Shown: positions 15,401 through 62,384 of the stretch, piece by piece
Position numbering within the stretch: position 1 is the stretch's first letter
Layout of the letters: every line of letters begins with the position of its first letter
Source: Haplodiscus bocki
Taxonomy: Eukaryota
Assembly: GCA_965655095.1 (NCBI GenBank)
Contig: OZ296651.1
Location: forward strand, 35,588,001 to 35,652,000
Length of the DNA stretch: 64,000 nucleotides
Direction: 5' to 3'
Translations under genes and position numbers: made by a program
Notes under the pieces: generated by a model
Seen by the model: only the letters and a program-made list of their open reading frames with translations
Told to the model about the DNA's origin: nothing
The model's database searches: none

Positions 15401-16500
15401 AGCTTTTTTGAGTGAAGCAGATACTGAGAGAAGAATAGGGAACCGAGAGCGAGACGAGATGCAGAGGCATTACACTCAACAAAAGGAATATCAATGTGTA
15501 GCAGAGTGGGATGGCAATTGGTGGATTCTGTACAAAGTTGACGCGGCTGTCAAAAATCATCCTCGAAAAATTCATCTCCACCAACGTCCTCTGCGTGAAG
15601 AATGACTCATGCATGATATTATCGGTGGGGTACTTGTCGAATATGTCCAAACTGATTTTGAAATTTCAGAACATTTGAAAAAAAATTTTCAATTTTTATC
15701 CCTACATCCAAAAACACTGTATTCAGTCGAACAGATTTCGGCAACTTGATGTAAGAAGACGCGGAAGAGGAAGGTATTATGGCATAGCCTAAATGATTGC
15801 CTATATCAACGTTACACCTAGCCAATGGATTTCTCATTACTCCCTCACCATTTTTGTTTAAATTCGAGGGCAAGAAAAATCATCAACTTGTTGAATACAG
15901 TCCAAAAAAGTGTCTCAACAAATTTGTAAAATCTGCTGTGAATGCAAGACAACATGGAGATTAAAACTCAAATTCAAGTGTTGCTGCTGAAACATTGAAG
16001 CTGCTAGCCAAGTTTTGTTATGGTTTATGAATATGGATCGAAACAGACTGCGATAAAACAGTCGAGCGACAAAAACTGCCTTGCAATCAACCTTAAAATG
16101 CTGAAACAACTGAATGACTTTACTGACCAACTGTAAAGAGGTGTTTTCTCGATAAAATTTCTCAGAAAAATTGGCTAAAAGATTTTTCAAGCAAACCAAA
16201 GGTTACATGAACACCGGGGAGACAAACACGCGAGGCAGTTTTCCAGCTGATGAGAGTAGCAGTAAACTATCGCGAACGGCAAAAGCAATTGATAAAATTT
16301 GCACTACATCTTAAGAATACCTTGGCCTGATCACATATCTACAACCAAGCGTACCCTGACAGGCTCTCGACTGCTTCTCCGGGCAATGTAATCGGCGTCA
16401 CAGAGCCCAGCTTACGTTTTGGTTGTGCAACAACATAAAAGTTTTTGGACGACTTGACAAGACTTAAAGAAACCTGTTTTTTGACAACTTTTGGCAAAAG
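12500..16500 (+). pseudogene. Protein-primed family B DNA polymerase (Polinton pPolB) remnant
   Basis: Fragments in pPolB order: TDFESIC exonuclease-I-like (~13865); KMIDFHHKNGKDIILLGCTLPN and DKDLLEEI..VG...VF (14828-15049); VGFDAAQLF motif-A-like (~15100); EWDGNWWILYK (15396-15605); KLLA motif-B-like (~16000). Heavily disrupted. Confidence 0.65.
13239..14040. repeat. ~800-bp imperfect palindrome (two ~400-bp inverted arms, ~17-nt loop at 13631-13647)
   Basis: AACAGTATTTCACGACCAGACT (13239) vs AGTCTGGTCGTTAAATACTGTT (~14018-14039). TTACCGCAGGTGACT vs AGTCACCTGCGGTAA. Centre: GGGGATTTGATGGCA-loop-TGCCATGAAATCCCC. Confidence 0.9.
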
Positions 16501-16639
16501 TCAAGAAAAAGTTCGCTCGGAGCCGACATTGTCATCCAAACCCACTGGTGTACTCACTGTTTACTCTGTTTTTCAATTCAGGTGACATGCACCACCTTGA
16601 GGCACGTTGAACGTGCTAACATCAGATGAAGCAGAAAAT

Positions 16640-18990
16640 CTTTTGTAAACCATTTTTTTCTAGAAAAAAATGGCTAACATGTACAACAAATGAAAAAATT
16701 TTCGACTGAAAACTGAATTCAACTAACGTTTCATAATACTTTGCCTAACTAGAAGTAGAACTTTTTACATGGGATTTCAGGCCAGAGGAGTGCGACAAAA
16801 TACCACTTGTCCTTTGAGAAAACCTGGGTTTTCAATTGCTTTCGCAAAAACTTGACGGCGCAAAGATTTCGTCCACCAAAAAAAACGGCCCCGGTCAATC
16901 ACGACGCTGCTATTACAGCTTAGCAATGGTCAGACGGATCGTACAATTTCGATCGTTGAAAATGAGTGTCAAACTTAGGAAACGCAATGGGCAATGGGGA
17001 GTATCGAAGCTGTTTTGGAAAAATTGAAAACTTTCCCCTGTTTTTTTTTGTGGAAACTGGCCGAAAAAAATTCTGGGCGAAAAATATTACAATACAAGCT
17101 CAACCGAATATTGTTCCATCAATTCGTGCAACAACATTAGCATTTTTCAGCTTTCTGCTGAGACAAGACTCAAAAACATAGCTTTCGCCCTCTAAGAAAA
17201 TCTGAAAATTGAATCACTTTCGCCACATAAATTGTCGAAAAAAATTGCTTGCCGAAGGTTTCGGATGGGCTACATCATGAAACCGTCGTCTTGGTTTTAC
17301 CAAAATTGGATATGTCTAGCCAAAAAGCGCCGAGAAAAATAGTTTTAAGGAGATGAAAAGCAGAGGGCTGTCACAGACCGAAAAAAAAACGAAATCATTT
17401 TTGAAATGTTTTGTGCAAATAAAACAACATAGGCGCTAACGTGTTAGGACTTAGCACAAGGCTCACGAAGATACTTCACAACTTGACTACGTTGCTGACC
17501 ACATTATCATGCAAAGCCAGAGAGCATGTAACAAAATCCGGAGAGATTAAGCAGAGAACAGCCAAAAGATAATAGTGGAAGTTCAAGGTAACTATCCTAA
17601 CTACACACAAAACTTGGCCGAAAAAGAAACGTCTGTCATCTCAAAAGTCATCAAAAGCCAAACGCGGTTTTGCAAGTGCATTGTCAAAGCAGCAAGCATC
17701 CAAAACTTGACAACTCGTTGTTAAGTAAAGCAATACGAATCTGGAATTGAAAATTCTTCTCAAATAGCCGTGTTTTTCTCAGAAATCGGACTGAAAGGTT
17801 TTCTGCTCAACTCGGAGCTCACATTAACACTCAGCGATGCTGAGAGTTATTAGGAGACACAGACTTGAGGCCACTTTTCATGTGATGAAAAGTCTTAGTA
17901 AATTATCGAGAATGGCAACAACAATTGAAAAAAATTGCTCCTCATCTAAAGTGTACCTTGGCCAGAGCACCTATCAACGACCAACCATTTCCTAATATGG
18001 TTGTGAAGCCTAGTTCCTTTTTAATGTTAGTACAACAGGATGAAAAGCCTTTGGAAGAGTCGATGAGTCTCAATGGAACCTATTTCGTGACATTTTTTGG
18101 CAATAAATCTATGAGAAAAATTCGCCTGCAGCCGCAACCTGCATCAGAAAACAATTCTGTAGACTTGGTTTAATTTTTTGCTCAATTTAGGTGATATGTA
18201 TTACTTTGAGGCATTCATTTGGAAACTCTTTTTTTTTCAGCCAGAAACTTGCGAAAACATCAGAAAAACTTCAACTAAAAACTGAATGCAACCAACGCTT
18301 CATAATCCATCGCCTATTTAGCATTGGGATGCCATACGTGGGATATTAGGCCAGAGAAGAGTGACCAAGTCACACTTACTCCCTGAAAAAACGTGGGTTT
18401 CCAATTGTTTTCGCCAAAAACTCGTCGCCAAGAATCTTTCGGCCATCGAAAATTTCGGCACCGGTCAATTGTAACGTTGCCGGTGCAGCTAAGCAATCAG
18501 CAAACGGTTTCTACAAATGTTTTTGCAGAAAGTGAGCGTCAAAGTTGAAAAATCCTGTGGGCAATGGGGAATATCAACTCTCTTTCAGAAAAGTTTAAAT
18601 ATTTGCACTTTTTTTGGCGAAAACTGGCCAAAAAAAAACTTTTTGGCAAGAAACATCACAGCACGCTGTTCAACTGAATGGTGCTCTATCAATTAGTGCA
18701 AACTCATTAGCATTTCCGAGCTTTCTGCAAAAACCGAACTCAAAAATTTACCATTTGCCCTGTAAAAAACCTGGAAATTGATTCTTTTTATGGCTAATAA
18801 CTCGCCGAAAAAGTTTTTCCGGCTTTTGGTGGCCTTCATTTTGGAATATGGTAGATCGTGAACGCGTTTTAGCGTTGATACAAAAATCGGATGAATCTGG
18901 AAAGGTACCGAGATGAAACGCAGAGAGATGTCACGGGCGGTAAAAAAAACGAAATCACTTTGACGTGTCGTTGTGCGAATAGGGTTCGCT
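16640..18990 (+). repeat. Diverged direct duplication of an ~750-bp unit (~16640-17420 and ~18230-18990)
   Basis: Collinear matches: AAAACTGAATTCAACTAACG vs AAAACTGAATGCAACCAACG; GGGCAATGGGGAGTATC vs GGGCAATGGGGAATATC; AAAAAAAACGAAATCA present in both. Confidence 0.75.
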
Positions 18991-19642: not shown

Positions 19643-22600
19643 TGTCGCAGCACGTCTGCGAAACCTGTGGACAGTCGCTCCCTGAATCGAAGGACATACC
19701 AGGCTCGTCGTCAACAAACTAAAAACTCAAGACAGACAACCTCATACATATATATTACATTATTTTCATTATTTGTATATAAATGATACTTAGTAGTTAC
19801 GTATCAATCCCATGCACACATATGTAATTCATGTAAACGATACGTAGTGGTTACGTATCGTTCCATGATATTCACTTCATGCAAAAAGCACGTATCCTTT
19901 ACGTGTAATTCCGGTGAACTGATCCAGATTGGGACGGAGCAACTACGAAATAAACGGATATTCATTTACTTTCCCTACTGTACATTTATATCAATATTAG
20001 GTGCTAATTACATAAGTAAATTAGCTACTTTTTATACAAACCCACCTTTCTAAATTGACTTGTGCAGTAATTTAAATCAAGATATACAGTGTCAATGAGT
20101 TTGCAATATCTACTACAGCTATAATTGCAGAGCGTGACTTTAAAAGTGAATATTTGTTCCGTATGTGTTCCATCTCAGCCAATCTGGTGATGTCGCAGCA
20201 CACCTGCGAGGCATGCGGCCAACCGTTACCGCAAGGAAAGCCACCCAATGCTTAGAAGAAACTCAAACAGTGACTGAACTTTCAATATAAATCTATTATG
20301 TATTTTAACTGTTGTGCATATATACGGATACGTATATAATACGTATCCTTAACAACGCACATAAAAATGGGTACGTATTTATACGGAACCAAACCGATCC
20401 GGACTAGGACGGAACCGCCACGGAACAAACGAGTATTCGCAGAGCAATATTAATAGAATAGGTGCTATATTTATATTAATATAATTACTTAATTATTTAA
20501 TATAAATCCGCCGTTTTTGCAATGAAATCAAACAATAATTGATTACTAGAAGTGCAGTTTAATTTCAAACTAGAATTAAATTGATGCTGTACGTAGATTG
20601 ACTGACTTCAAGTGTATTGACTCTAGGAGTTAATGTTTGTTCCGTACGTGTTCCGTCGCTACTAGTCTGGTGACGTCACTAGTATTATTACTCTGCCGCG
20701 CTGTAGTGATTCCGGAATCATTCCGGAATCACTCCTCATTTGAGCAAAGAATACGACCACTACTAGTGAATACGGAACTATTCCGGAATCATTCCGGAAA
20801 CCACTAGTGCTACTCGTACGAATGAGGATTAAACTAGTAATGCTACTAGTTTCTCCTCATTTCCAAAGAGTAAGAACTAATGAGCTGTTATTATTAATGG
20901 AGTGAACGTGAGGGTGATGAGTTTTTATATTATAATAAAGTCATGCTTTTCCATATTTATTTTTTAATCCATTTTTCACAAATAAGGAAATATTTTTCCT
21001 TTACCATTTATGGAACCTTTTTGTAGAACTGTAAACAAAAGTGTCGGCGTGGGAATAAACAATTTGATGTCCATTTCTGACGGATTGAGACCGTCCATTT
21101 TCTGACAAAAGATGGAAAAGGCGCGTCCTATGAAGGCAGAGATGGATGGAAAGGTTGTTGATTTCCCGCCAGAGTCGGCACTCTCACCTTTGATGCTATA
21201 CTTTTCGACAGTACTTTTCCTTATTTGTACTTTGACTTGGCGTGCAAACAATTATGTTTCCCGCCAGGAAGAAGTATAAATAGGAGAAACGAAAGTACAA
21301 CGTCAGAAATTTTGGGGAATTTGACAGAACTTTACAGAACTTTTGAGAGCCATTCAAGTGAACTTTTAATAATTTTTCAAGAGCTTTTCAGAAACTTTTC
21401 GAAAACTCTTAGCAATTGTATTGAACATTCTTCAGAACGAGTGTACAATTATTTGTGACTGATAAGTGCTGACGATATATAACCAGTCTTTGTGTATTCT
21501 TCATTTACTCTTTCTTTCCTAACACTAATACTGTAAACCTCCCACTTGATTTTACAATAAAAAGACAATCAATTATTAATCGTCGAAAACGCTTTTCCAT
21601 AGAATGGCAACCCGCAATTGGCAGCTTTGAATAAGGAAAACTGTGAGGAACATCCCAGGAGTAATTTGGCATCAAACTCAAATGTCCCCAGATCACAGGA
21701 GGACTATATAACTCAAGTTTCCGAGGAAATTGAGGGAAAAGTCACCAAAAAGTTGTCGCAAGAATTTAGCAGAACGGAAAATCGTATACTAGGTGCGCTA
21801 GCAAGACTTGATGACTTCCTCATGAACCCACTACTCCAGGACCACTCCGGAACCACTCCGGAGACGTCCCGGAATATGTGTAGTATAAACCAGTGAACGA
21901 GTGAGGATGACTCCCAGAGTAACCCTCATCCTGAAGCGGGCCTCCTCACCTTTGGCCGCGAGGATCGCCACGACATGGCGACGAGAGTTCAGAGAGAGGG
22001 TACGCAGGCGCATGACAGGTGACGTCACTAGAATTTAAGCCAACCCACTGTGCTTCTCTGCTGTATCATTTTGGACGAACACCGAACGGTTACGTAACCA
22101 CTCTTTTCGTTTTTGTCAGTAGCACCGCGGAGAGCAGTCGTACAAGCGGCTCCGTGGTCGTTCCGGGACGCTTGGGCCAAAACGAGTAACCAGCTTGTAG
22201 AAATGAAGAACGGACTGCGAAAAAGCGTAGTTTTGTTCCTAGCAGTGAATTTAATCGATGCAATATGTAAACACATGTAAACATGAATTTTAGCCATCAT
22301 TTTTATGCATTTTGTTTTAGATATTCTAATTATATTTGGTGCAAGTTTTTGTAATTTCCTCATATGGAAAATCCATTTGATATTTTGTTTTTGTTATAAT
22401 TTTTTGTGTCGGCGCGAGATTAACCACTTTGATGTCCATTTCTGCCAGATTAGTCCCGTACGTTTTTCTGTCAAAAGATGGAAAAGACGCGGTCTATGAA
22501 AGAAATGGACGGAGAGGTGTTTATTTCCCACTATAGTTGGCATTTTTCCTTTATAGATGATATGGTTAAAGTGCTTTTCCCTATTGGTACCTTGAATTGG

Positions 22601-23229
22601 CGTGTAAACAGTTGTTTCCCGCAAAGGAAAAGGTATAAATACGAGAAACGCAAGTACGTTTTTTAAAAGATGAGTTGTAGGTTTTTCGGTATCGTACTAA
22701 AATTCTACATCGTCAACTGTTTGCTTTTATTGAAACCTTTTCTCCCATAATAGAGGAGATCGACATTTTGTTATAAATAAAATTCAACTCAGTCTTCACA
22801 ATTGACAGAACTTTTCCCTCAGAATCATGGCAACTTTGAGGAACAAAAGAAAATTAGCGGCAGTTTCGAGAGAAACTCCAGAAAATACAAGGAACAATCA
22901 GTCACAAAACACACTTAATCCGGAGATGACTGAAGAGTAAATCACCCTGGTTTCTGAAAAAATTGAAGGGAGGGTCACTGAAAAACTTTCCCAAGAACTT
23001 AGCTGGACGGAGTCACGCATTTTGGGTGCTTTGTCTAAACTCGATGAATTTCTTCTGAACCCACAAAGTCGGACTTGTTGCGTAGCTGTTCCAGGCACAT
23101 CCAGGAACAACAACTCAGAAAACGGGGAACCCACTGGGGTCGTTCCTTGAACGACCCCTGTCCCGAAGTGGTGCTCCCTGCCTGTCATACCAGTAACCTA
23201 AATGATTCAGAACAGGAACCGACATACCA
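19643..23229 (+). mobile_element. Diverged solo LTR related to the 43966 element, split by a nested LTR (parts 19643-20190 and 22023-~23229)
   Basis: Starts TGTCGCAGCACGTCTGCGAAACC and is collinear with the 43966 LTR (GACTTTAAAAGTGAATATTTGTTCCGTATGTGTTCC; TATA at ~22633; gag start ATGGCAACTTTGAGGAACAAAAGAAAA at ~22827). The 3' end and TSD are not clear. Confidence 0.8.
20191..22017 (+). mobile_element. Solo LTR (1827 bp, TG...CA) of a related family nested in the previous LTR; perfect 5-bp TSD GGTGA
   Basis: Starts TGTCGCAGCACACCTGCG and ends CATGACA. GGTGA at 20186-20190 and 22018-22022. Contains a gag N-terminus remnant (21618-21896: DYITQVSEEIEGKVTKKLSQEFSRTENRILGAL). Confidence 0.92.
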
Positions 23230-26200
23230 ACGCAGCCCAAATGGTTTCCCAACTATCAATTTACATTATCCCAACATTTGAAGCTTTTCAACGATCACAC
23301 GACACACAATTGTTTTCTATCCTGATACTTACAATCACCTTTTCCACTTTGACTACTAAATCTTTATGACAATAGAGCAAGAAGATCATCGAAGCTACAT
23401 GCACTGTGTTGCGATATACTTTGAGACAGAACTCCACCCGACGGGAAAAAACTCCACAAAGCTTTTTTGAACCTTCGAACTGTTTTGACAGGGCATGCGT
23501 TTCACGGTTCTTGACTTTAGCCGAGTTTGAAGATCCTCGAATACTTCTTATGAGTGACTTATGTCTGAAGACCTCTCGAAGGTATATGGTAGCATGACAG
23601 TCCTTTTAACCACTAACAACACTACTACGCCCACACTAAAGTTTTCCATCATTCAGAGGCTTCGGTAAACCTTCTACTACAGTTAGATTCCGATCGACTT
23701 CCGCAACGGTTCGTCACTGGAGACAATTTTCCTCGGCACACTCATGAAGTCATTCCAAGTTGAGAACAAGCAGAACAGCGCCATGCGATCCCAACAACTT
23801 CTCAAAAACCAACGTGGTACTTGGTAATCCACTTGTTTCGTCTCCGGAAAGTCAATCAGCACTCTCTGTTCAAAGCTTCAAAGTACTGATCCACTTCTAC
23901 AGCACAGCAGGTCAATTTCTAGGACAAGCCCATTAATTCCAATGCATCGTTTGGGATTTTGCAGAAAGAGTTTATGAATTTGCAAGAAGTCAAGCCCTGC
24001 TTCATTACTAAACACTATTAAAGCTGCAGAAGAAAAAAGTTCTTCTATCTGAACGAGTGAATACAAACTGAACGAAACAATCTCCCACGTCGTTATTTCC
24101 CCTAGAGTTTTTCGGAGAGATCTAAGTTGACGCCTATAAAATTGAGATAGAAAACTGACTGACAAGCAGCAGCAACAGCAGCCACAGCCTGAGCAGCTGC
24201 TGCAGCGACAGCCGCAGAGTCAACCAATGAAACCAACTCCTTTACAATGGACATCACAGACAATGCGTTGAATGTTTCGTTTGAGATGTTTCGTAATTAC
24301 TCATTGAAAACCAGCAACTATTGACAAAAGCCCCTCAAGGCGACGGAGTTGAAAAAATTAAAAGCCGTTTTGTACTTGCAATCTCAGAGCTAATCCACGA
24401 AACTTGGCAAGTGGTGAAGAGAAAAACATACAAAACGATGATACCGAATAAATTTTCACTTTTGTCGTCGCAGAGAACTTAAACTCTGGTAAAGTTGGCA
24501 ACATCGTCTATATGACCATAGTAGGCACACCTTTTTTTGGCGGCTCGGCGCATTCCGTTTTTTCTTAAAGGAGCTACTCTCACGTACTTTTGTTGTGGAG
24601 GAATTAAACTTTATGTTCTAATTTGAAATCAACAAAGTTAACAACTCCATCTTTCAACTAGGTCCTTCCAGGGATCCTTGAGTAATTTCAGTTTACTTTT
24701 TTAGAAAAGAAAATTAAACAACCTTCAAATGTTAAACTAGTCTTGGCTGAAAACTGACTCCCAGTTTCAAATGAAGCATAACGTCAACTTTTTGGTTTTC
24801 TAGGCTCAATTCGCTTTGCATTTTCGAGACATGAAATAAAATACTTTGTTTTTCAAACATTTCGAAAGTTTCAAAATCTCATTGACAAAAGTTTATTGGG
24901 GCTCAGCGACCTTGCTACCGAAATTTTTAGGTTTGTAAATCGGGAGCAAAAATGCAAAACTGAGTGTTTTTTTCTTAACATGGTACTCTATTTTAACAAA
25001 ATTTCTTAAACGAGACAGTTTTCTAAGAGGTTTGAAGATTTTTTGTGGGAAACTGCAGCGGAACAAAACTGACAATCCCTTGACGCCTACAAACTAAGCT
25101 TCATCCTAATTAATCACAGTCTCTCTCCACTTCAGAGCTGCAGATGTGATAGATCAATTTCGAGCTCCATAAACCGATGCACTTGTGTTCGTGTTGTAGC
25201 TGCAGCTACTCAAGACTTCCTACAGTCAACGAATTCAAGACTCTGACCGTTCTAGTAAGGAATTAAATCGTCTCCACACCAAACACAATTTGTTTATTCG
25301 TTCCAAATCCTTATGTCAATTTCGTGCTCAGACATCGGAAAAGGTCTGAGCCTTGAAGTAATCTCGCCCTCCAATCGGAACCGATGTGTTATATCCTGTT
25401 TATACTTCTGCGTGCTTTATCCATCGGTTCCTGTCGATAGACCAGTTACAGGGATGTTATCTGTTTTCCATCCAGGACGGATGAAAATCGATGTATTCTT
25501 GTAACTTCTCCCAATCCATTCTACTTTTATTCGTCTGATTAGTGCAGTTACTGCATTACAGAGGGCACTTGTAATTATGCAAGTTTCCGGCCGAAGCTTA
25601 CCGGTGTCTGTTAATGTCTTGATATGCATTTTCACTTCTGAGCTTCAGTCAGAATCTAGCGCCATTATGTTTCATGTTTTTGGTCATTTCTGCACTGTTG
25701 GCTTTTGTGTTCTGGAACTCCCTACTTATAAAATGCTCAGCAATACTTAGTTTTGTATACTACATAGTGTGTTATATGATATGTAATCGCTTCCATATCG
25801 GGGGAGAGGGGAAGTAATATGACGTAGTATCATATATACTTTTATGCATTTCTTGGCTACAGAACTTGCATTAGGATCTTAATTACTATAGTTGCTTCTT
25901 TTTACTAGCCTCTTATTCACTTTTTATTTTACACAACAACGTTCGCTCAATGATTTCCTCGACGTTTGGCTGAAGTCGTTCGTTGGTCAAATGGTCGAGG
26001 TAGCTTCTCTGTAAAAATTGGGTTAATAATGTGTCATATTCCGACGGGACTCGCAAAGACTCATTTTTATTCTTTAGGATCTGTTATATCACAGGCATCT
26101 GCGGATCTTTTTTGCCGATTCATTCTTGACAAATAAAATTTGCCAAAAGACAGCTGCGTGTCAGGGGCTCAAACATCGGTGCTTTGGAGCCGCAGTTGCA

Positions 26201-29104: not shown

Positions 29105-29156
29105 CTCTGGCTGTGGAAGGCAATAGCAAACCACGACAGTATCCTGCTAAGAAACC

Positions 29157-32558: not shown

Positions 32559-33713
32559 ACAAGAAAAGTTATTCATTCAGTAGGGTCGTTTTTCTTTTTT
32601 TTCAGACCAAAACTGCCAACTCTTTTTATTCAAAAATAAATGATAGCAGTGGGGTTAGGACAACAAGGTTCTCAAGTGGTAAGTTCGGGGTTCGACTCCC
32701 TCTTATGTCAAACTTTTTTACGATTTATCCTTAACAGTTTTTGATACCCGAATTAGTGAAACACTAAAGGGTTCCTTTACGAAGTTTTTCGGCATTGCGA
32801 GACAAAAAATTTTCGACGGAAAATCGCGATACTCGCTCCCCCCTCTTATCCAAAATTTTTTGATACCCGAAATTAGTGAAAAACTAAAGCATTCCCCTAC
32901 GAAGTTTTTCGATACTGTGAGACAACAACTTTTCTATAGAAAATCGTGATATGCCCCCTCTTATCCATAAATATTTTTCGATACCAGAAAACTTCCGGAA
33001 AACAGAATAGTTCTTTTACAAAGCTTTTCGTTTCGATCCTGTGAGACAAAAAATTTCGACAAAACCAAGATGCCCCCCTCCTATGCATGAAAATTTTCAA
33101 TAAAAGAATTTTTCTGAAGCACCAAAGTGTTCTCCATTGAAATATTTTGGTACAGTGAGACAAAAACATCGACGGAAAATCGTGATGTCCCCCCCTCTTA
33201 TCCATAAAATATTTTTCCCTACCAGAAATTTTCTGAAACACAGAATGGTTCCCTGGCGAAGTTTTTTCGGTCCCGTGAGATGAAAAAATTTTCGACAAAA
33301 TTGTGAAGCTTCCCCCCACCTTTGCTTGAAAATTTTCGATACCAGAATTCTTTAGAAACACCGAAAGGTTCTCCTACGAATTTTATCGGCACTGTGTGAC
33401 AAAGTTTTTTCAACGGAGTTTAGTGATATCCCCTTCTTATGTATAAAATTTTTCCTTACCCGAAATTTTCTGATTCACCGAAGTGTTCCCCAACGAAATT
33501 TTTCGGTATTGTGAGACAAAAAATTTTGAACGAAAAGTCGTGATACCCCCCTCTTTCGCATAGAAGATAGAAATCAGTGGTGGAATTGGTGTTTGTAGAA
33601 AAGTTTCGCAAACCAGATTTTACACAGTAGTCTCGTTTTTAACTGGGCAAATATGTTGATCAAAATATTTGTATTCCTGCGAACAATATGCCGGTGCTAG
33701 CCGGCCGTCTTGT
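32559..33713 (+). mobile_element. Non-autonomous element with an internal ~115-bp tandem array; Helentron/DINE-like ends
   Basis: ACAAGA at the 5' end and TCTTGT at the 3' end. Hairpin GCCGG-TGCTAG-CCGGC (33690-33705) just before the end. tRNA B-box-like GGTTCGACTCC at ~32689. Confidence 0.45.
32735..33560 (+). repeat. Tandem array of about 7 diverged ~115-bp units
   Basis: Recurring GATACCCGAAA...ACGAAGTTTTTCG...GTGAGACAAAAAATTTTCGAC...AAAATCGTGAT...CCCCCCTCTTAT. Confidence 0.9.
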
Positions 33714-43965: not shown

Positions 43966-45705
43966 TGTCGCAGCACACCTGCGAAGCCTGCGGGCAGATA
44001 ATCCCAGCAGCAAAGGACACCCCAGGCCCATCAAACAGAATCTAGGATTCTGAAGAAATCGAATATACTTTTAAACTAATGACTTTCCTTCATAAATAAT
44101 GTATTTTTAACCGTATGTATATATATATATAAGTACGTAGACACTACGTACCCCCACTAATGCATAATAACATGAATGGTATACGTGGATGGCACGTAAC
44201 AACTACGTGCCACCTAACGCTATCCCATTCATGAAAAGAGCACGTACCCTGTACGTGGAATTCTGGTGAACTGATCCTTATTGGGACGGAATAGATACGG
44301 AGCAAATGAATATTCATTGTATTTTATATTTATATTAGGTGCTATTTTATATAATTAATCAAACTAATTATTATATAAATCCACCTTTCTAAATTGACTA
44401 GTGCAGTATGTGATCTATTTAAATTGACAGCTTGTCGAGTTTCAATAGCTGGACTATTAAGAACAGAGCTTGACTTTAAAAGTGAATATTTGTTCCGTAT
44501 GTGTTCCGTCGTAACTAATCTGGTGACGTCACTAGAATTCTTAACCAATCAGATGTGCTATTAGGCTGCGCAACTTTGGTCGGCCACGTGTCGTCTACGT
44601 GCCACCGGATTCATTTCTCCTCAGTTGTACTGCGGAAGGTAGTGCTACAAGCGGCACGTAGCCGCCACGTGCCACCACGGCCAAAGTGAGCCGTAGCCTA
44701 GTAGAAACGTGGAACGGGCTAGGATTTACGCCTAGTTTGTCCCAGAAAATGAATTTAACCGATGCAACATGTAACCATGAAGATTTTCAGTATTAGTACA
44801 TATTTATTTCATACATTTCCATTTATTTTCAAGCGCATTTTTAAGTATTCTCCAATTATGGAAATTGCTTTGATCTTTACTTTATGTCGATATTTATGTG
44901 TCGGCGCGGGAATAACCACTTTGATGTCCATTTCCGACGGATCGGACCGTACTCTTTTCTGTCGAAAGATGGAAAGGACGCGGTCCGTGAGGGAAGAAAT
45001 GGATGGAAGGGTGTTTATTTCCCGCCAGAGTCGGCATCTTTTTCTTTGATATATAACATGATTAAAGTACTTTTCCCTATTTGTACCTTGACCTGGCGTG
45101 TAAACAATTATGTTTCCCGCCAAGGAAAGGTATAAATAGGAGAAATGAAAGTACAATTATTATTAATTAAATTGCCGCCTTACCGTACTGTACATTTATT
45201 AACCTTTGACTATTGGATTGAAAAGACTTCTCCCTCATATTAAAAGAGGATAATAATCTGACCAACAATACAAATAGAAAATTCAGTCTTGACCGCTGAA
45301 AAGGTTTTCCCAAGCGAAATGGCAACATTGAGAAATAAAAAAAGTTAGCAGCAGTTTCAAGAGAAACACTTGAAAGTACTAGAAGTGGGAGAGTACCGAA
45401 CATTCTAGACCCAGAATTAACTCAGGATTACATCTCTCAAGTCTTCGAAGAGATTGAAGGTAGAGTTACTAAAAAACTCTCAAAAGAATTCAGTAAAACA
45501 GAATCACGGATCTTGGGAGCCTTGTCGAAACTTGACGAGTTTCTCTTGAACCCACAAGTTCGGACTTGTTCCGTAGTTGCCCCAGGAACCTCTAGGAGCA
45601 ACAATCTAGAAAACCAGGGAACCAATGAGGATCGTCCCTCAGACGATCCTGGGCCTGAAGTGGAGTTTTCTTCCCCCATCCCAGGGGCAGAAACAAATCC
45701 TCACA
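43966..45705 (+). repeat. 5' LTR (1740 bp)
   Basis: TGTCGCAGC...ATCCTCACA; direct repeat of 57702-59439. Confidence 0.97.
44903..45138 (+). promoter_or_regulatory. LTR core promoter: three E2F-like sites and a TATA box
   Basis: GGCGCGGGAA (44903), TTTCCCGCC (45018 and 45113), TATAAATA (45131). Upstream are a CRE-like TGACGTCA (44524) and CCAAT (~44545). The same layout is seen in the diverged solo LTRs. Confidence 0.6.
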
Positions 45706-46943
45706 TGGTGACAGGAGTTACAAGAGAATTTCGTCAACACCCTCACGTGACTATGGAAACCCAAGAAGAAATTCCCTACTGTTCCACTAGTACTTCATCA
45801 GGGAAACAGAAGAAGGCGCGCTCCACAAGTCAACCTCAATTTCGCAGTGAGAATACCCCTGCGACACTGGAGGCAGACCAGATTTTGTTGGCCCTTCAGC
45901 AATTGGCAACGAACAGTAATTCAGCCAATTTCAACAACAACATTAGCCGAAATTCGAAACTGCCGAAATCTCTAACAACGACAATGCCCACGTTTGATGG
46001 AAAATCAGCGAAATTCGAGCTATTTGAAGACTTATTCCAAACGAGTTTGAAAATTCATAACCAGCTGACAGAAGATGACAAGATTAACTACTTCCACTCT
46101 CTCATGCGTGGCGATGCCTTGCAGACTTTCAAAAACATCACCAGCCCCAACAGAGAGAATCTGGTAGAAATTCTGACTGTATTCCGCAGGAAATATGTCA
46201 AACCCCAGTCAATGGCTACCGCGAAACACAAATTTCAACGACTAGTCTTCAATCCAACAAACCAGAAGTTAAATGATTTTCTTGACGAAATCCAGAAACT
46301 AGCGAAAGACGCATTCGGAGTTGCCGCACAAGCCATTATAGAACAATTCATCTATGCCAAAATGCCTCCTCACCTGAAGAAATCAATTAACCAGGCGCAT
46401 TTGGAGAATGGCACATATGAACAGATTGTGTCGCATCTTGAAAGGGAGTTGGAACTAAATGGTTTGGAAGCCCCAGATGAAATGCAACTAAATTCCGTGA
46501 TGCAACAAGACACACAACAAAACTCCGGAAAGCCCAAACCAACGTGCCACCATTGCAAAAAGCCAGGCCACTATCGAAATTAATGCCGTCAACTCAAACG
46601 AGAAAAAGACCAAGTCCAAAACAATACAGATAGTGCGACAAATCATAAAAATAGCAATGGTAGTGCCCAAACAAACTCTAACCCCAATCAAAAAGCAACA
46701 GTTGCAAATAAGGCGAACAATGCAAATAATCAAAGAGACAGGAAAACTAGACCTGTTTTCCCACCCTGTGAGACATGTGGCAGGACAAACCACTCCACGG
46801 AGAGATGCTACCTTGGAGCAAACGCAGCGAACAGACCGCCGCCCAGAAATAGACTGCCGGAAGGACAAAACCAAGCCCAACAGAGAAATACTCAAAATGG
46901 CTCAGACGGGAATGTCCAAGCTGCAGCCCAACCTTTAAACTAA
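45319..46943 (+). pseudogene. gag: Gag (~541 aa reconstructed), starting inside the LTR; two CCHC knuckles; 1-nt deletion at ~45338 and premature TAA at 46581
   Basis: The 3' LTR copy gives the intact start MATLRNKRKLAAVSRE (59052). Capsid-like MPTFDGKS..FELFEDLF; knuckles CHHCKKPGHYRN*C and CETCGRTNHSTERC; stop at 46941-46943. Confidence 0.92.
45706..45718 (+). other. Primer-binding site TGGTGACAGGAGT (tRNA-Leu-like), inside the gag frame
   Basis: TGG directly after the LTR-terminal CA. One mismatch to the tRNA-Leu-type PBS TGGTGTCAGGAGT. Confidence 0.75.
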
Positions 46944-46987
46944 CTGCGCCACGTTTTCACTCCGGAAATGCACGTCACATACCGGAG
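46934..46987 (+). promoter_or_regulatory. -1 programmed ribosomal frameshift signal (T TTA AAC) with a downstream stem
   Basis: The heptamer is in the correct phase directly before the gag stop. The -1 frame is open from 46934 into the protease ORF. CTCCGG/CCGGAG can pair at ~46960 and 46982. Confidence 0.85.
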
Positions 46988-49900
46988 ACTAATAAAACAA
47001 CTAAACTTCCACCAATTCCCGAGGTTGTCTGGCAGCAACCTACGGAGACCAATACAAAACAAGATGATGTTAATAATATTACTAAAGACTCAACTTCAAA
47101 GACTGATGTAGCACGTCAAACTACGCCACCTAAGGGAACCCAACCACAGAAATACGTGGACACCACGGAACAATCTTCAGGAAACAAAACAGGAAATGAA
47201 CCAGTATCGTTCCCCAGTTGCTCCAAAGACTCCTCTACCAATAGCCAAAATACAGAGCAGCACATAACGACTACCCCTAACAAAGAGATGACAACTCCAC
47301 CTCTCAATACAGCAACCCCACTAATTGAGGAAAGGCTAGTGAGAGATGAGCAGACAAATGAGTTGTACCTCCCATTAACATCTACAGTAGTCCTGAAACG
47401 AAAGCAAGAAATGCTTTATGTGCCTCTGGATTTTGAGAACAACCATACGGTAGATGCCCTGGTGGACTCAGGAGCATTTGTCAGTGGAATCGCCCAGGAT
47501 GACTTGGAAATGATAAAACAGAAAGCCCCGAATAACATTCTCAAAATCGACAATCCGCCCAATTTTCAAATACAAGTAGCTAATGGCCAGTTAGAGAAAC
47601 CATTATCAACAGCCACATTAAAATTTGAAACTGGAGATAACTCTTTCGCTGAACATTTCGTCGTAATGAAGAAATTAACGGGACCTATAATTGGGTTGCA
47701 TTTTATGAGAAACAACAGTGTAGTCATTGACACGACACACGGCCTCATACATTTTCCCCACTTGACGATGCAGGTGAAAACAGCCTCAAGTGAAATAACC
47801 ACCAAACCGCAACCAGTCATCATGGACGAAGACCTCACAATACCACCAGCGACAACAAAAACAGTCACAGCCTACAATGACCATCCCTCGAAATGGAACA
47901 CAACAGGCACTGTGACACCGTTGGAGAAGTTTACAGAAACAGCGAGTCTGCTGATTTCCCATTCAATGTCAACAATAATTGACAAGAGAATAGCAGTTAG
48001 AGTGACCAACACAACGGAATCACCATATCTCATCAAAAAACACACACAGATTGCAGAATTCTCCGTGGTTACTCCGGAGCAATCTAAACACATCAAACCA
48101 GTAGATATGGCAATCCTCAGTATGATTCCACAAGGCGATCCTGACCTAACTGCCTACCTAAATGAACTTCTCAGGACCAACAAACCCGAGCAGCAAGCGA
48201 ACACGTTCTGGTTCCCGACACCCGATAATCCTGGAAAGCCTGAGGATCACACCCCAATACAGACAAGAATCCTCAAGGAATTGAACGAACTGAAGGACAA
48301 GGAAAAACTCAATCCACAAGAGAGCGCAGAATCTCGAAACAAATTTCTCAAACGTTTTGATTGGACTGACACGCTTCTTACAGAAACGGAAAAACAAGCA
48401 AATGAAGACATCCTGGTTGAATATCATGATATATTGGCCAGACACAGAATGGATATTGGGATGAACACCGAGTTCCAGGTGAAAATAACTCCTAAAGACG
48501 ATAAAGCTGTATATAGCCAGAGTCTACCCATGCCAATCCACCTGAAAGAAGACCTGATTGTTGAACTGGCCCTAATGCACAAATATGGAATCATTACAGT
48601 ACTGCCCTTTTCCAAGTACGCGAGCCCAATAATTGCACAAAGGAAGCCTAACGGAAAACTACGTCTCCTTGTGGACCTACGAAAAATCAACAGTCTGATT
48701 GCAGATGACTATACTAATAACAATCATCCAGTTAGTACTCTGTCAGACGCAGCACAACACTTGGCAGGAAAGTCACTGTTCTGCAAACTAGATTGGTCCC
48801 AAGCGTATCACTGTTTGCAGATGGCAGAACAACGGTCAGTGGAGATGCTCGCATTCAATTTTGCCAGCAGAACCTTTGCCTACAAAAGACTAGAACAAGG
48901 TCTCAGCAGATCTGTGTCTGCTTTTTCAAGTTTCATGCGTGAGTATTTGGACCCAGTCGTCAAAGCTGACCAATGTGCTCAATACGTAGACGACATTGGA
49001 ATCGCAGCCAACAATGCCACGGACCTTACCCGGAATATCCGAGCAGTCTTCAAGTGCATCCGCCAAGCAGGATTGAAACTGACAATCGAAAAATGTCATT
49101 TTGGAGTCAGAGAAGTTGAGTTCCTAGGACGAACAATTTCACCAGAAGGAATCTCACCACAAGCCCGGAAAATCCAAAACTTCCTTGCTAAACTTCGATT
49201 CCCCAAATCAAAGAAGGCATTGCAGCGCTATCTGGGATTCGTGAACTATTACAGACATTATATTCCCAGAATGGCTGAAAAACTCAATCCGTTCTACAAA
49301 TTGCTTAAAACGGAAGTGCCAATCAATTTTACGTCAGAATTGAAAGAAACATTTGATTCAGTCAATGCAGCTCTCAGCAATGCGTGCGAATTAGCATTGA
49401 AACAACCCATTCCAGGAAAGTAGCTTGTCTTAATGACAGATGCCAGCTTCAGAAGTGCGGGATACGCCCTAATGATTGAAGATAACCCCGATCAAAAAAT
49501 ACAGTCAAAGCGGAAAACCTATGCCCCCGTGGCATTTGGCTCAAAAATTTTCTCCCCTGCACAACTTAAAATGTCTATATACTCCAAGGAATTTCTTGCA
49601 ATCTACATGGCATTTCTTGAATTTGCATACATTTTGTGGGAAGCAACAAAGCCAACGATTGTCTTAACAGATAACAAGTCTGTCACCCGCTTTTTCCAAA
49701 CGAAGGCAATCCCCCCAGCACTCTGGAATGCATGTGATTATGTATTGCAATTCAATTTTAAAATAGCACACATTGCCGGATCAGTCAACACAGCAGCTGA
49801 CTTTCTCTCTAGGCTTGAACTTAAAGTTACGGAGAAGATACGTGTCAAAATTCGGGAGGATATTCAGACAACACCCATTGAAGTGACCACGTTGTCCTCG

Positions 49901-51814
49901 GATGTTGCTGACGAAGAACAAGTTTTCTTCACTTGCGCAGACAACGCTCAAGAATCAGAAGAACAGACTCTTGAACGGAAAAAGCAATCGCGACAAAATG
50001 CGAAGCAATGGGCCGCGAACGAAGAACTACTTGCTTTAAAAACGAGTGTGAAAGAAATCACAAAGATCGACGGGAACACTACGTCGTTTTCCATCAACGG
50101 AATTAAAGCAACTGCAAGAATACGAGTAGAGCAGGACGTTGATCTTGTGTTGAAGAACCTGAAACTGAAAATTTTAGGCCAACCATTTGATGAAGTGTTA
50201 ATAACGACAGATTCGCGATACAAACATTACAAGGCAAATGAAGATCGCATAATCCTTAAAGATGGCCTATTATACAGAAAATATTTTGGAGAAACAGGTA
50301 GCGTCAAATACTACCAAATTCTTATTCCCAAGCAATTAGTTAAGGAAGTCCTACGCAGCTTGCATGGAGAATTTGGCAAGCACCAGGGAATTTTCAGAAC
50401 AATAATTGCTTGCAGGGAAAAATATTACTTTCCGAAAATGGCGCAATTAATCAGGGAGTGGGTCATGTCATGTGAGCAATGCATCAAAGAATCCCGTGTT
50501 GATCCCAGCCTCACCCGCCCTCCCCTGCAAAATCCAAACGAACACATTACTGCGCCCGAAGATGCAATTCAAATTGATTTGGTACCGGAATTACCGCCAT
50601 CTGGTGGTTACGAAAACATTGTGACAGCTATGGATGTGTTTTCCCGCTTTTTATTCGCGTACCCGACAGCAAATCAAGACGCCAAAACAATCGCTAAAGT
50701 CTTAATTAACATAATGACTAAGCACGCCTACTTACCAACGACGCTCATCTCAGATAAAGGTACAGCCTTTACGTCACATGTAATTAAAGAAGTGGCCGGC
50801 GTCCTTGGCGTTACTCTAAAGGACGCCACTACAAAGCACGCTCAAACAATTGGGCTACTTGAGCGATCTCATGCGTCAATCAAGAAAGCATTGAAGATTG
50901 AGACAGGCGAGCGGCGATCACTTTGGCATAAATACGTCAACATTGCAGTTCTCAATTATAACACTTCTTATCACACAAGCATTGGCTGTGAGCCAAGCCG
51001 AGTCTTTCACGGCAGAATTCCCTACAACATTCTTGATTTAAAATTGGGAATTCGCCCACAGCAACAGCCTATTCCCACTTCGCAAATTGCCCAAGATATA
51101 CTCGAGCAAACCGAAATGATCCACCAAGATGTACGCAAGAACACTATGCAAGCGTATACTAAATACAAGGCCTACTATGACAAAAAGGCCAACGCTTCAA
51201 AACTCAAAGAAGCAGATTATGTATATATCTTGCAGCCGAAAGCGGATCATCAAGGAAGCAAAATTCCATTCACAGAATTTCGATGGGTTGGCCCGTATAT
51301 TATCGAAAAGGCACTACCAAATAATAACTATCTGGTACGCAAAATTGGCACAAACAAGACGCAATTGCTTCATCGAATGAGAATGCGTCAATTTACACCC
51401 GGCCAACCACCAGCAGACATCACAGTCAAGCCGCAAGATTATAAATCCGATACCGAAGTGAATATTAATCACGACGATTTATATGCAAGGGCGTGGGAGT
51501 ATGATTTCGAGCAGCCAATTTTCGACGCCGAGAACGACAACGCGGCGCCACCCAATCCACGAGAAATTCCAGTACAGTCTGATTTTTTAACGGAGGAAAT
51601 GAGGAACACGCAAGGAGCCACACACGAGTGTTCCCCAGAAATTTTTCCCCCAACGGACGAAACTAGCGACGTAGCAGATACGTATACACATGTGGAACCA
51701 GATGTGGGGACAAGCTCGGAACAACAAGGAAATAGCCCGAGCAACCCCCGCAGCTCCAAATACAACCTGCGTCATAACCCGAAGCCGAATTGCAATGACG
51801 ACTACAGATATTAA
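46934..51814 (+). pseudogene. pol: Pol (protease, dUTPase-like spacer, RT, RNase H, integrase); single in-frame TAG at 49421
   Basis: PR LVDSGA; RT LRLLVDLRKIN and YVDD; RNase H TDAS and ADFLSR; integrase HHCC (H..GKH..CEQC), IDLV/SDKG/LERSH and GPY. ORFs 47156-49423 and 49433-51814 are in the same frame. Confidence 0.95.
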
Positions 51815-52093
51815 CTTGTCTGTGGAACAAGTGTGTTCCACGTATTGCGCACGTAGACATTCCTCCAAATGTGTCCCACGTAGTGCGCACGTGGGCGCTC
51901 CCTAAAAATCCAAACAAATGCGCTACGTGGCACGTAGGTGGCAGCCCGAACTGACTGACACACCTCGACTATGGCTATTCCCTGGCGACTAACTCATCTG
52001 CTACACAGTAAAGACTATTCCAAAACACGGCCACTAAGACTAAATTCATCAATATTCCATTATATATTTGGCCGGTTATTCCGCTATTATTCA

Positions 52094-52179
52094 TTTATTT
52101 CCTTTTTTCTTTTCTGTTTTGGCGGACTAATAGACTACTATTATATATATACATGCATTCAACAATAAATATCAATAAA
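52094..52179. terminator. Convergent candidate polyadenylation signals between pol and the antisense gene
   Basis: AATAAA on + at 52164 and 52174. AATAAA on - at 52094-52099, ~170 nt after the antisense stop. Confidence 0.5.
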
Positions 52180-52269
52180 GAAGGCAGTTCAAGGTGGCAC
52201 AACGAGCAAATCAATCAAATTGGCGAACGACAAAACAATTAAAAATGTTCAGATGCTAAAAAATTCTGT

Positions 52270-57052: not shown

Positions 57053-57781
57053 ATGTCACTCAATTCATCAGTAAACTCCACGGACTCTGACGTATTTTAT
57101 GTTGAGCAACTATCAGACGAGCCCAGTCCGCGCAGAAATAACACGCCGGACATACTCAACTCGACAGCGCGAACAGACCATCAAGCGATGAGGATGCCAT
57201 CATTCTCCACGATCGCATCCCCTCAGCCTCATTTCGTGACGATCGATGATGATTCCAACCAGATTACAATGGCTTATGGGTTTGGGCAGCAGCACCCGAT
57301 CGTTCCCCCCAGCCTGAATGATTTAAACCTGCCACCCAATCCCTTTAGTATATTAGCGACGATGGCCATAGCTAACAATACGGAACATGACAACGAACAC
57401 TACAGCCCGGAGTCACCGGACCCGTCACTACCATCATCCATATCGTCGCCCCCAATGAGCGTCAGTGCATTCCACAGTTTCGAAACGACGCACAGTACAA
57501 CGGACGACAACAACTTTTATTATTCGTCCGACAACGATCCAAGAAGGATATACTGGGAGACGTCTCTTAACGAAACCTTCGAGTCAAATGAGCCCAGAAG
57601 AGTGTATCCTATCGAAAGCCCTCCATCCACACCGCCGCCGCCGCCCCGAAAACTGAAGAGAAAGTTGAGCCTGGGAATGTCCTTTCCAAAAGAGGGGGGA
57701 GTGTCGCAGCACACCTGCGAAGCCTGCGGGCAGATAATCCCAGCAGCAAAGGACACCCCAGGCCCAACAAACAGAATCTAG
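57053..57781 (+). CDS. Accessory 242-aa Ser/Pro/Asp-rich protein overlapping the PPT and the first 80 bp of the 3' LTR
   Basis: Intact ATG-to-TAG ORF of low complexity. Contains PPPPRKLKRK (NLS-like) and a terminal HTCEACG. No signal peptide or TM segment. Confidence 0.75.
   Translation: MSLNSSVNSTDSDVFYVEQLSDEPSPRRNNTPDILNSTARTDHQAMRMPSFSTIASPQPHFVTIDDDSNQITMAYGFGQQHPIVPPSLNDLNLPPNPFSILATMAIANNTEHDNEHYSPESPDPSLPSSISSPPMSVSAFHSFETTHSTTDDNNFYYSSDNDPRRIYWETSLNETFESNEPRRVYPIESPPSTPPPPPRKLKRKLSLGMSFPKEGGVSQHTCEACGQIIPAAKDTPGPTNRI
57688..57701 (+). other. Polypurine tract AAAAGAGGGGGGAG
   Basis: All-purine run directly abutting the TG of the 3' LTR. Confidence 0.92.
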
Positions 57782-59439
57782 GATTCTGAAGAAATCGAAT
57801 ATACTTTTAAACTAATGACTTTCCTTCATAAATAATGTATTTTTAACCGTATGTATATATATAAGTACGTAGACACTACGTACCCCCACTAGCGCATAAT
57901 AACATGAATGGTATACGTGGATGGCACGTAGCAACTACGTGCCACCTAACGCTATCCCATTCATGAAAAGAGCACGTACCCTGTACGTGGAATTCTGGTG
58001 AATTGATCCTTATTGGGACGGAATAGATACGGAGCAAATGAATATTCATTGTATTTTATATTTATATTAGGTGCTATTTTATATAATTAATCAAACTAAT
58101 TATTATATAAATCCACCTTTCTAAATTGACTAGTGCAGTATGTGATCTATTTAAATTGACAGCTTGTCGAGTTTCAATAGCTTGACTATTAAGAACAGAG
58201 CTTGACTTTAAAAGTGAATATTTGTTCCGTATGTGTTCCGTCGTAACTAATCTGGTGACGTCACTAGAATTCTTAACCAATCAGATGTGCTATTAGGCTG
58301 CGCAACTTTGGTCGGCCACGTGTCGTCTACGTGCCACCGGATTCATTTCTCCTCAGTTGTACTGCGGAAGGTAGTGCTACAAGCGGCGCGTAGCCGCCAC
58401 GTGCCACCACGGCCAAATTGAGCCGTAGCCTTGTAGAAACGTGGAACGGGCTAGGATTTACGCTTAGTTTGTCCCAGAAAAAGAATTTAACCGATGCAAC
58501 ATGTAACCATGAAGATTTTCAGTTTTAGTACATATTTATTTCATACATTTCCATTTATTTTCAAGCGCATTTTTAAGTATTCTCCAATTATGGAAATTGC
58601 TTTGATCTTTACTTTATGTCGATATTTATGTGTCGGCGCGGGAATAACCACTTTGATGTCCATTTCCGACGGATCGGACCGTACTCTTTTCTGTCGAAAG
58701 ATGGAAAGGACGCGGTCCGTGAGGGAAGAAATGGATGGAAGGGTGTTTATTTCCCGCCAGAGTCGGCATCTTTTTCTTTGATATATAATATGATTAAAGT
58801 ACTTTTCCCTATTGGTACCTTGACCTGGCGTGCAAACAATTATGTTTCCCGCCAAGGAAAGGTATAAATAGGAGAAATGAAAGTACAATTATTATTATTT
58901 AAATTGCCGCCTTACCGTACTGTACATTTATTAACCTTTGACTATTGGATTGAAAAGACTTCTCCCTCATATTAAAAGAGGATAATAATCTGACCAACAA
59001 TACAAATAGAAAATTCAGTCTTGACCGCTGAAAAGGTTTTCCCCAAGCGAAATGGCAACATTGAGAAATAAAAGAAAGTTAGCAGCAGTTTCAAGAGAAA
59101 GACCTGAAAGTACTAGAAGTGGGAGAGCACCGAACATTCTAGACCCAGAATTAACTCAGGATTACATCTCTCAAGTCTCCGAAGAGATTGAAGGTAGAGT
59201 TACTAAAAAACTCTCAAAAGAATTCAGTAAAACAGAATCACGGATCTTGGGAGCCTTGTCGAAACTTGACGAGTTTCTCTTGAACCCAAAAGTTCGGACT
59301 TGTTCCGTAGTTGCCCCAGGAACCTCTAGGAGCAACAATCTAGAAAACCAGGGAACCAATGGGGATCGTCCCTCAGACGATCCTGGGCCTGAAGTGGAGT
59401 TTTCTTCCCCCATCCCAGGGGCAGAAACAAATCCTCACA
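57702..59439 (+). repeat. 3' LTR (1738 bp), includes an intact gag N-terminal ORF (59052-59456)
   Basis: Direct repeat of the 5' LTR, followed by TSD ACCAT. Confidence 0.97.
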
Positions 59440-60756: not shown

Positions 60757-62384
60757 TGTCACAGCGCATCTGCGAAGCCTGCGGGCAAGCAATACCAAAA
60801 GAACGGACATCCCCTGACTCTCAAAAAACTAATATTCCCCATTTTATCAAACAACTCACTCATCTTTATGTTTTATTTGCATGTAAAAAGTTCCATAAAA
60901 AATGGATCACTTCAATGAACTGATCTAGACTAGGACGGAACTCTTATGCAGAAAAATGTAATCACCTAGTAGTTTATTATAGCCTAAAAGGTGCCATATT
61001 TAAAACCACTTTTTCACTTAAAATAATATAAATCCACCTTCCTAATTGTACAGGAAAAACCTGGTGTAAAATTATTTGAAATTGATCCTGTCAATGAAGT
61101 GAAACAGTGCTACTGCAATTAAACTTGCAAGACTCTAGGAGTGAGCAGTTGTCCCGTACGTGTTACGTCGTTACTACTCTGGTAATCTGGTAACATCAGA
61201 GTCACTCCGACTAATATGAAAGTGCTAGCTTGCCTTGCTAAGAAAGCTGAAGACGGATCAACTCCGTATTCCTTCCGTCACGAGGCATAGCCAATATACT
61301 TAACTTAGTGCTACAAGCAAACGTGGAACTGTTCTGGAACATTTTAGCTGAAATGAAGAACATTTTGAAAAAGTTCATAGTTTCTACCTAGTTTTAACCA
61401 TAACCTTCCAGTAAGTGACCATAAATTTCTTTTGGTTTCAACATGATTTAGTTGTGACCATTCTTTATTATTATTTTCTTTGTAATCTCAAAACTTATAT
61501 TGTGATTTATTTTTGCCTTCTGGGGGATTCGTAAAATTTCTTTGTTTTCTCCGCAATGGCCTTCAATTGACTATTTTTGTTAGCAATTAACGTTGCAGCG
61601 CAAGAATATGAACTTTAATGTTCATTTCCGACGGAATAGGTCCGTTCATTTTCTGTCGAGAGATTGAAAAGGCTCGACCCGTGAAAAAATTGGATGGAAA
61701 GGTAATTAATTCCCGCTAGAGTTGGCATTTTCTGCCTTGTGAAATTTATGATGAAAGTACGCTTCCTCGTTTTGTACCATGACTTGTAGTGTAACCGTAT
61801 ATCTTTCCCACCAAAGAAAATGTATGAATAGGAGAAACGGAAGTACTAACTTTCACGTATCATTGTAACCCTTGACAGTATTCCGTGACTGACGACTTCA
61901 AGCAGTGCAACCTTCCGAGTTGTTTTACATGTTAAAAACTCTCATGCAGTCATTAAAACTGCCCAATTTTTTCCCGTGGAATGGCAACACGGAGGAAGAA
62001 GAGAAAAGTAGCAGCTAAGAAAACTTCAAGAAAAACAACTTAGAAACCACTTGTCACGAGATACAACCGCTTCTAGAGTCCATGAAGACTATATTATTCA
62101 GATGCAAGGGGAGGTAAAAGGGACAGTGTCAAACAATTTATCTCAAGTGTATATTAGGACAAAAGGTTGAATTTTGGGCGCTCTGTCGAAATTACATGGA
62201 TTCCTTTTGAACACAGAGGGCCAAGTGCAACCCGGAACCGTTTCGGGAACATCCCAGAACTCCAATGGAAAAATTCAGGAACTCAGTGAGAACCGTTCTC
62301 AGATCGACTATCCTCCTTAAGTCGTTAACTCCGTTAATTGGGCCCCTCAGTCTATGAATTCGGACCCACATGAGGTTTGTTACA
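60757..62384 (+). mobile_element. Old solo LTR of the same superfamily, TSD TTACC/CTACC
   Basis: Starts TGTCACAGCGCATCTGCGAAGCCTGCGGGCA (frame reads SQRICEACGQ). Gag start ATGGCAACACGGAGGAAGAAGAGAAAA at 61981. Ends GTTACA. Confidence 0.8.

Follow-up and report, generated by a model that had tools for sequence, protein, structure and literature searches.

Four insertions and a repeated junction unit

The window, by which is meant the whole 64,000-nucleotide stretch of Haplodiscus bocki DNA analysed here, holds four insertions of one LTR superfamily, designated A to D, which were recognized by self-comparison and by reading of their ends (Table 1). Element A is the full element, extending over 43966-59439, and its two LTRs are 98.4% identical over 1742 bp in the window self-comparison. 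Its target site duplication (TSD) matches at 4/5 positions (ACCAC/ACCAT), and this duplication together with the match to the 3' LTR fixes the end of the 5' LTR at 45705. Pfam matches in element A comprise gag-type domains followed by RVT_1, RT_RNaseH, Integrase_H2C2 and rve in that order, a DSG protease-like motif was noted by eye upstream of the reverse transcriptase (RT), and the best PDB matches of the RT are foamy virus and Ty3 enzymes (E 1e-24 to 1e-19). The gag match is to DUF1759, which is also known from BEL/Pao elements. Paired LTRs with TG...CA ends, a TSD, a primer-binding site (PBS) at the 5' LTR and a polypurine tract (PPT) at the 3' LTR are all present, as in Ty3/gypsy elements, and the Ty1/copia order, with integrase before RT, is absent from the Pfam matches of element A. 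The family appears to be a Ty3/gypsy LTR retrotransposon, an assignment made at the level of layout and pol order rather than of clade. Full-length gag relatives have 539-569 residues, and in all four insertions the gag start lies downstream of a TATA-like box.

Table 1. Features of the window (positions counted from its first letter).
Feature	Position	Strand	Remarks
Solo LTR C, host of B	19643..23231	+	interrupted by B; 3' end ~23229-23231, uncertain; no relic unit
Left TSD of B (GGTGA)	20186..20190	.
Solo LTR B	20191..22017	+	1827 bp; TGTC...GACA ends; nested in LTR C
Gag N-terminal coding stretch inside LTR B	21604..22017	+	frameshift near start, stop at 21894-21896
Older LTR end CACGACA, now internal in B	21969..21975	+	end in P0272, P0351, P0388, perhaps P0338
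Relic PBS inside LTR B	21976..21988	+	same register as relatives' PBS in use
42-bp unit absorbed into U5 of B	21976..22017	+	relic PBS, internal-type sequence, LTR-end copy
Present LTR end of B, CATGACA	22011..22017	+	TSD
Right TSD of B (GGTGA)	22018..22022	.
5' LTR of element A	43966..45705	+	1740 bp; gag ATG at 45319
Gag, element A	45319..46583	+	frameshift near start, premature stop at stretch end
PBS in use, element A	45706..45718	+	13 nt, no spacer, in gag frame
42-bp unit, internal in element A	45706..45747	+
Degenerate downstream copy of LTR end and PBS, element A	45741..45755	+	never seen as LTR end (561 proteins)
Pol, element A	46853..51814	+	order PR-RT-RNase H-IN; stop at 49421-49423
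Polypurine tract, element A	57685..57701	+	adjoins 3' LTR
3' LTR of element A	57702..59439	+	short form, ends CCTCACA
Solo LTR D, same superfamily	60757..62384	+	TSD TTACC/CTACC; no relic unit

Several other features of the window were recorded. Between pol and the PPT of element A lie about 5.9 kb (51815-57684) with several long minus-strand ORFs (52270-55445), which gave no significant Pfam match; one of them has a Cys/His-rich, zinc-finger-like stretch, and the region may hold cargo or an antisense gene. Fragments of a LINE-type element with endonuclease and RT domains occupy 29151-31686, and a tandem array with a period of ~118-121 bp occupies 32725-33568. Two diverged direct repeats of ~1 kb at 16218-18812 (66% identity), with an ATG that carries the gag-start motif of the family at 17912, are possibly older LTRs. 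LTR D ends (62370-62384) four codons past a DPH motif that resembles subfamily A LTR ends, and its end is possibly a collapsed unit of the type described below.

Removal of LTR B from LTR C restores the site as it is found intact in the LTR of element A. The insertion site is a TGACGTCA-containing palindrome of LTR C (20186-20190, 22018-22030), which we take to be CRE-like, and the six bases after the end of B equal positions 2-7 of the family PBS, a match that may reflect either chance or homology-guided insertion.

An initial annotation of the window, made from its letters, had proposed that the LTR boundary walks along a 42-bp tandem unit made of the LTR end and the PBS. The motifs on which that proposal was built are all in place: in element A, CCTCACA (45699-45705) is followed directly by TGGTGACAGGAGTT, with CCTCACGTGACTATG at 45741, and in LTR B, CACGACA-TGGCGACGAGAGTT stands at 21969 and CATGACA at 22011-22017. 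The spacing is exactly 42 bp in both, and the true end of B at 22017 is defined by a perfect 5-bp TSD, GGTGA, on both sides. The repeat unit consists of the PBS, ~22 internal bases and the last 7 bases of the LTR, tandemly duplicated. Judged on the window sequence by itself, the two copies resemble each other only weakly: 9/15 bases agree at a lag of 42, a score that 0.9% of window positions attain, and 20/42 agree across the full unit. Between the units of A and B 23 of 42 positions agree, about as many as for any 42-mer of the window; 3e-5 of window 42-mers attain this under a null that includes the A unit itself. It is the family data that lift the tandem unit above chance. RNA folding of the two junctions was no better than that of shuffles (z -0.02 and 0.68).

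The PBS may be read as complementary to the 3' end of tRNA-Leu. A pointer to the primer is P0290, in which the PBS is followed by a peptide that, as reverse complement, fits 9/9 invariant tRNA positions and 5/5 T-stem pairs, and which alone among 348 PBS-register peptides fits the tRNA pattern. This peptide forces A73 and, by eye and in this one record, seems to extend into a long variable arm, two features that point to tRNA-Leu. P0290 carries a tRNA-like copy behind the PBS, which is read as a reverse-transcribed piece of its primer. The 64-kb window itself contains no tRNA gene. Over 10 bases the relic at 21976 resembles a Ser-type PBS. A switch to a tRNA-Ser primer there was set aside, because the relic in subfamily B (the subfamily of LTR B) reads MATG in 49/117 relatives and the window's MATR in 13/117; it is also disfavoured by the contigs described below, 94-99% of whose depth differs from the window at 21984.

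LTR ends among related proteins

Ends across the family were read from predicted proteins, TSDs being checked in the window insertions only. When an ORF starts from the gag ATG of a solo LTR or a 3' LTR, it crosses the LTR end into host DNA, and because the LTR ends in CAC-A or GAC-A, the residue after the end must come from a codon with A first; this A-first rule tests each LTR end from the protein alone. Only proteins with an open frame are visible in this way, which biases the sample toward in-frame units, and the counts that follow are not fully independent, since some records represent the same insertion in two assemblies, as their shared flanks indicate. The protein set may mix several species.

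In subfamily A, to which the full element belongs, 103 of the 120 best LTR-derived ORFs end at the first unit, and an A-first residue follows in 103/103 (background 0.43, p=6e-39). Eight of the same 120 end one unit later, by steps of 11, 12, 12, 12, 14, 14, 14 and 14 codons; P0211 was moved by eye into this late-end class from the script's read-through class. The remainder comprises 8 ORFs that read on into gag and 1 that is deleted. The best 120 full gags of this subfamily carry one PBS-type unit in 79 cases, two in 31, three in 9 and four in 1, spaced by 14 codons (34 times), 9 (13), 12 (3), 17 and 28. The P0211-type units contain the PBS, a downstream QEEIxYC stretch and the last two LTR codons, a composition that would fit a 42-bp duplication of ~7 LTR bases and 35 internal bases.

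The 120 ORFs collected for subfamily B, the window's own included, were ranked only on residues up to the first end, and since scoring stopped there, long forms were not favoured by the search. A relic unit is present in 117 of the 120 and missing from 3, and a second-unit end or junction could be placed in 108, with 9 unclear. Sixty-four of these 108 second ends are in frame, an A-first residue comes next in all 64, and the step is 14 codons in 57 of them. The shifted frames account for 33 and 11 cases, the 11 all showing H or Q, as predicted. A GA microsatellite within the absorbed unit (window 21983-21999) expands and shifts the frame in 44/108 cases, some of which may be assembly errors. 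At the 5' junctions of this subfamily the second end is followed immediately by the PBS in use, as seen in each of the three frames (MVTG; TW-stop; HGDRSS). The LTR stops short, at the first site, in P0272, P0351 and P0388, perhaps also in P0338, and two relic units lie inside the LTR in P0287, P0311, P0298 and P0685.

As judged from predicted proteins, then, the LTR ends of this family are demonstrably polymorphic on the register of the unit. That much of the proposed walking holds: ends fall on the register, longer LTRs contain a relic PBS and, as discussed below, the long form is derived. A shift downstream is seen as well, but the boundary moves both ways and not downstream alone. A 14-codon step is the commonest, as a 42-bp period would have it, although ends in subfamily A also differ by 11 and 12 codons and units in gag by 9, 12, 17 and 28. 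The second copy at 45741, which had been presented as a repeat of the junction, does lie 42 bp on, but it is a dead copy, and no LTR end at a degenerate last unit of this type occurs among 561 proteins.

Searches of further data brought little to add to these counts. The contigs that lie on 21700-22120 come from four runs, at most 2 samples and one study; they represent many diverged relatives, unlike the window sequence from ~21998 on. Neither a 42-bp joint nor a loose end at 21975 was among the joints and loose ends listed, the listing comprising all but 6 joints and 1034 loose ends. A scan of viral contigs returned no relative, and a metagenome scan returned a single chance match, in a bacterial parB-like gene (L001). 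A search of sequencing runs matched 23, none above half of words, with no RNA run among those listed.

A probable choice of priming site and its alternatives

The right end of an LTR is the place at which the tRNA primer starts minus-strand synthesis. We think it probable that LTR length in this family is set by a duplicated LTR-end/PBS unit, the choice of the copy at which priming occurs and the decay of one copy; that priming choice causes the end polymorphism would follow from standard reverse transcription. The PBS abuts the LTR-terminal CA and is situated in a flexible linker of gag, and for this reason an in-frame tandem duplication across the junction would be tolerated. The duplicate, ~7 LTR-end bases and ~35 bases of PBS and downstream gag, would supply a second primer site together with a second integrase end. 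Priming by tRNA-Leu at the upstream copy would leave progeny with the short LTR, and priming downstream would have the upstream PBS and spacer copied into U5, both LTRs gaining one unit. Decay of one copy would fix the choice of LTR end: subfamily A, its downstream copy (45741) lost, stayed short, and subfamily B, mostly with a decayed upstream copy (21976), is long. New duplications, intra-unit deletions and occasional returns to the first end presumably keep happening, the duplicates arising perhaps by template slippage or by misaligned second-strand transfer.

The long LTRs could instead have been made after insertion, by recombination of the downstream 7-base copy of the LTR end with the end of the 3' LTR, leaving a solo LTR that is one unit longer, is flanked by a normal TSD and involves no shift of priming. 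The long LTR of the window is indeed solo, and most LTR-derived ORFs read the same whether they come from a solo or a 3' LTR. This route is nonetheless highly unlikely, given that long ends are the rule in subfamily B (108/120) and that 7 bases of homology are inadequate beside the 1.8 kb offered by the LTRs. It would also delete gag, yet ORFs from long LTRs lie on contigs of the same length as those of near-identical intact gags, and one long lineage recurs with four flanks.

Twenty-nine gag/LTR pairs were matched on equal-sized contigs, which we take to represent one element each; 5 of them were excluded because identity was low or the linker was not the same. Gags with a single PBS pair with a short LTR in 14/14 cases. 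The multi-unit gags of subfamily A form seven pairs from six insertions, of which 4 end at unit 2 (P0470/P0143, identical over 141 residues; P0558/P0553; P0018/P0178; P0047/P0214) and 2 at unit 1 (P0043/P0441; P0527/P0450, with the same flank as P0534/P0443). All three pairs from subfamily B end at unit 2. In 3 of the 4 downstream A pairs the upstream site has decayed to MATG or QILTG, and in P0047/P0214 it still reads MVTG. One excluded pair, P0555/P0057, would combine a long LTR with a single-PBS gag, both on one 626-kb contig; since their linkers are not the same (127/142), two insertions were assumed.

A further alternative holds that the last intact PBS always primes and that short ends are produced by integrase trimming to an upstream CA or by deletion of a unit from one LTR. 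All 4 downstream A pairs end before the last or the second PBS-type unit, as this would have it, and the short ends of subfamily B are scattered on the tree. P0047/P0214, which ends at unit 2 of 3 with unit 3 decayed, fits both models, and P0043/P0441 and P0527/P0450 would need 54-84 bases to be trimmed, far more than the two that integrases are known to remove. We regard this alternative as very unlikely.

One long A lineage is found with four different flanks (P0178, P0553, P0554/P0555, P0556), from which the long end is concluded to be inherited. The long form is also the derived one, since distant lineages mostly carry one unit: among the 27 representatives of 50% clusters that were informative on inspection by eye, a single unit occurs in 16 and two to five units in 11, and P0570, which is B-like, has a single unit with the PBS directly after the first end. 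The unit used by B aligns with the dead last unit of A, and the relic of B with the used unit of A, so that the two copies of one duplication met opposite fates in the two subfamilies. In trees of the N-terminal part of gag, the 4 rows with short B ends require 4 changes and the 11 rows with long A ends require 7; the starred branches force only 1 change, and the trees are too poorly resolved for origins to be counted.

Relatives such as P0570 and P0699 contain, immediately before the first LTR end, several additional codons that both window subfamilies (21934-21975, 45664-45705) lack; the missing codons hint at deletions that may offset gains.

It had further been suggested that walking could explain why so much gag lies inside the LTR, and in its strong form this would mean that repeated steps moved the whole N-terminus of gag there. 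The relatives with two relic units in the LTR indicate that steps can add up, and very old units could have decayed past recognition. The suggestion is nevertheless not supported by the first ~125 codons, which are common to all four insertions, give no Pfam match and hold no unit-like relic, 17% and 33% of shuffles scoring as high; no older relic was found upstream in the LTR-borne gag, and LTRs C and D are likewise without one. The distances from ATG to LTR end in the four insertions are 388, 414, ~403 and 404 nt, whether a relic is present or not, and a step adds a duplicate of the junction rather than unique coding sequence. We consider the strong form extremely unlikely; walking, as far as the protein and window comparisons indicate, would trim or extend only the last one or two units of the LTR.

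A more far-reaching extension of the priming account is that the junction array is a self-renewing treadmill, in which reverse transcription goes on duplicating the unit, the site of priming moves gradually downstream, each gain is locked in as the upstream PBS decays, and deletions farther up U5 hold the LTR-borne gag at ~130 codons. We find this doubtful. If true, LTR ends could evolve by this route in general, and translation of the PBS would be what makes it visible here.

Relation to known systems

Each insertion would record the PBS used by its parent, and the family thereby offers a natural, many-copy experiment on primer-site choice, in which the rules of that choice, such as the role of distance, the mismatches that are tolerated and any bias toward the upstream or the downstream copy, can be counted in a genome and not in engineered vectors. 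It also suggests, in concrete terms, how an LTR may grow and shrink at its U5 end, and it serves as a warning: where a family consensus is used to place the LTR boundary or the PBS, the call can be one unit off. The mechanism follows from textbook reverse transcription and is, to the specialist, neat more than shocking. A natural family with heritable LTR ends on the register of a PBS repeat was not found in the literature covered, in which subscription journals and Repbase were thinly represented.

In its TG...CA LTRs, 5-bp TSD, PBS, PPT, gag and PR-RT-RNase H-IN pol the family resembles Ty3/gypsy elements (Metaviridae), from which it differs in that the LTR contains ~125-138 codons of gag and in that LTR end and PBS form a tandem array, with LTR ends that are polymorphic. 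The mechanism needed here, dual initiation, has a counterpart in HIV vectors with two PBSs, in which Voronin and Pathak, in 2004, reportedly observed frequent initiation at both. Unlike the duplicates in those engineered vectors, the ones described here are natural, in frame, equipped with their own integrase end and inherited as LTR-length variants.

The GAG of yeast Ty1 overlaps its LTR by about a dozen codons. As in the element A family, the Ty1 PBS lies inside the GAG ORF, which starts upstream of it; Ty1 differs in being a copia-type element primed by tRNAiMet, and the portion of the source available mentions neither a tandem PBS array nor polymorphism of LTR ends (PMC4974528). Drosophila Gypsy and Ty3 are described as having a bipartite PBS with two tRNA-binding sites per genome, but the second site lies at the 3' end of the genome, binds another part of the tRNA and leaves the LTR boundary unmoved (PMC1635307). 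A parallel to P0290 comes from defective HIV-1 proviruses, in which plus-strand synthesis past A58 copies primer tRNA behind the PBS, an indication that second-strand transfer misfires in vivo; the HIV-1 read-through inserts are portrayed as dead-end deletions and not as giving rise to tandem primer units (PMC12657518, PMC8599865).
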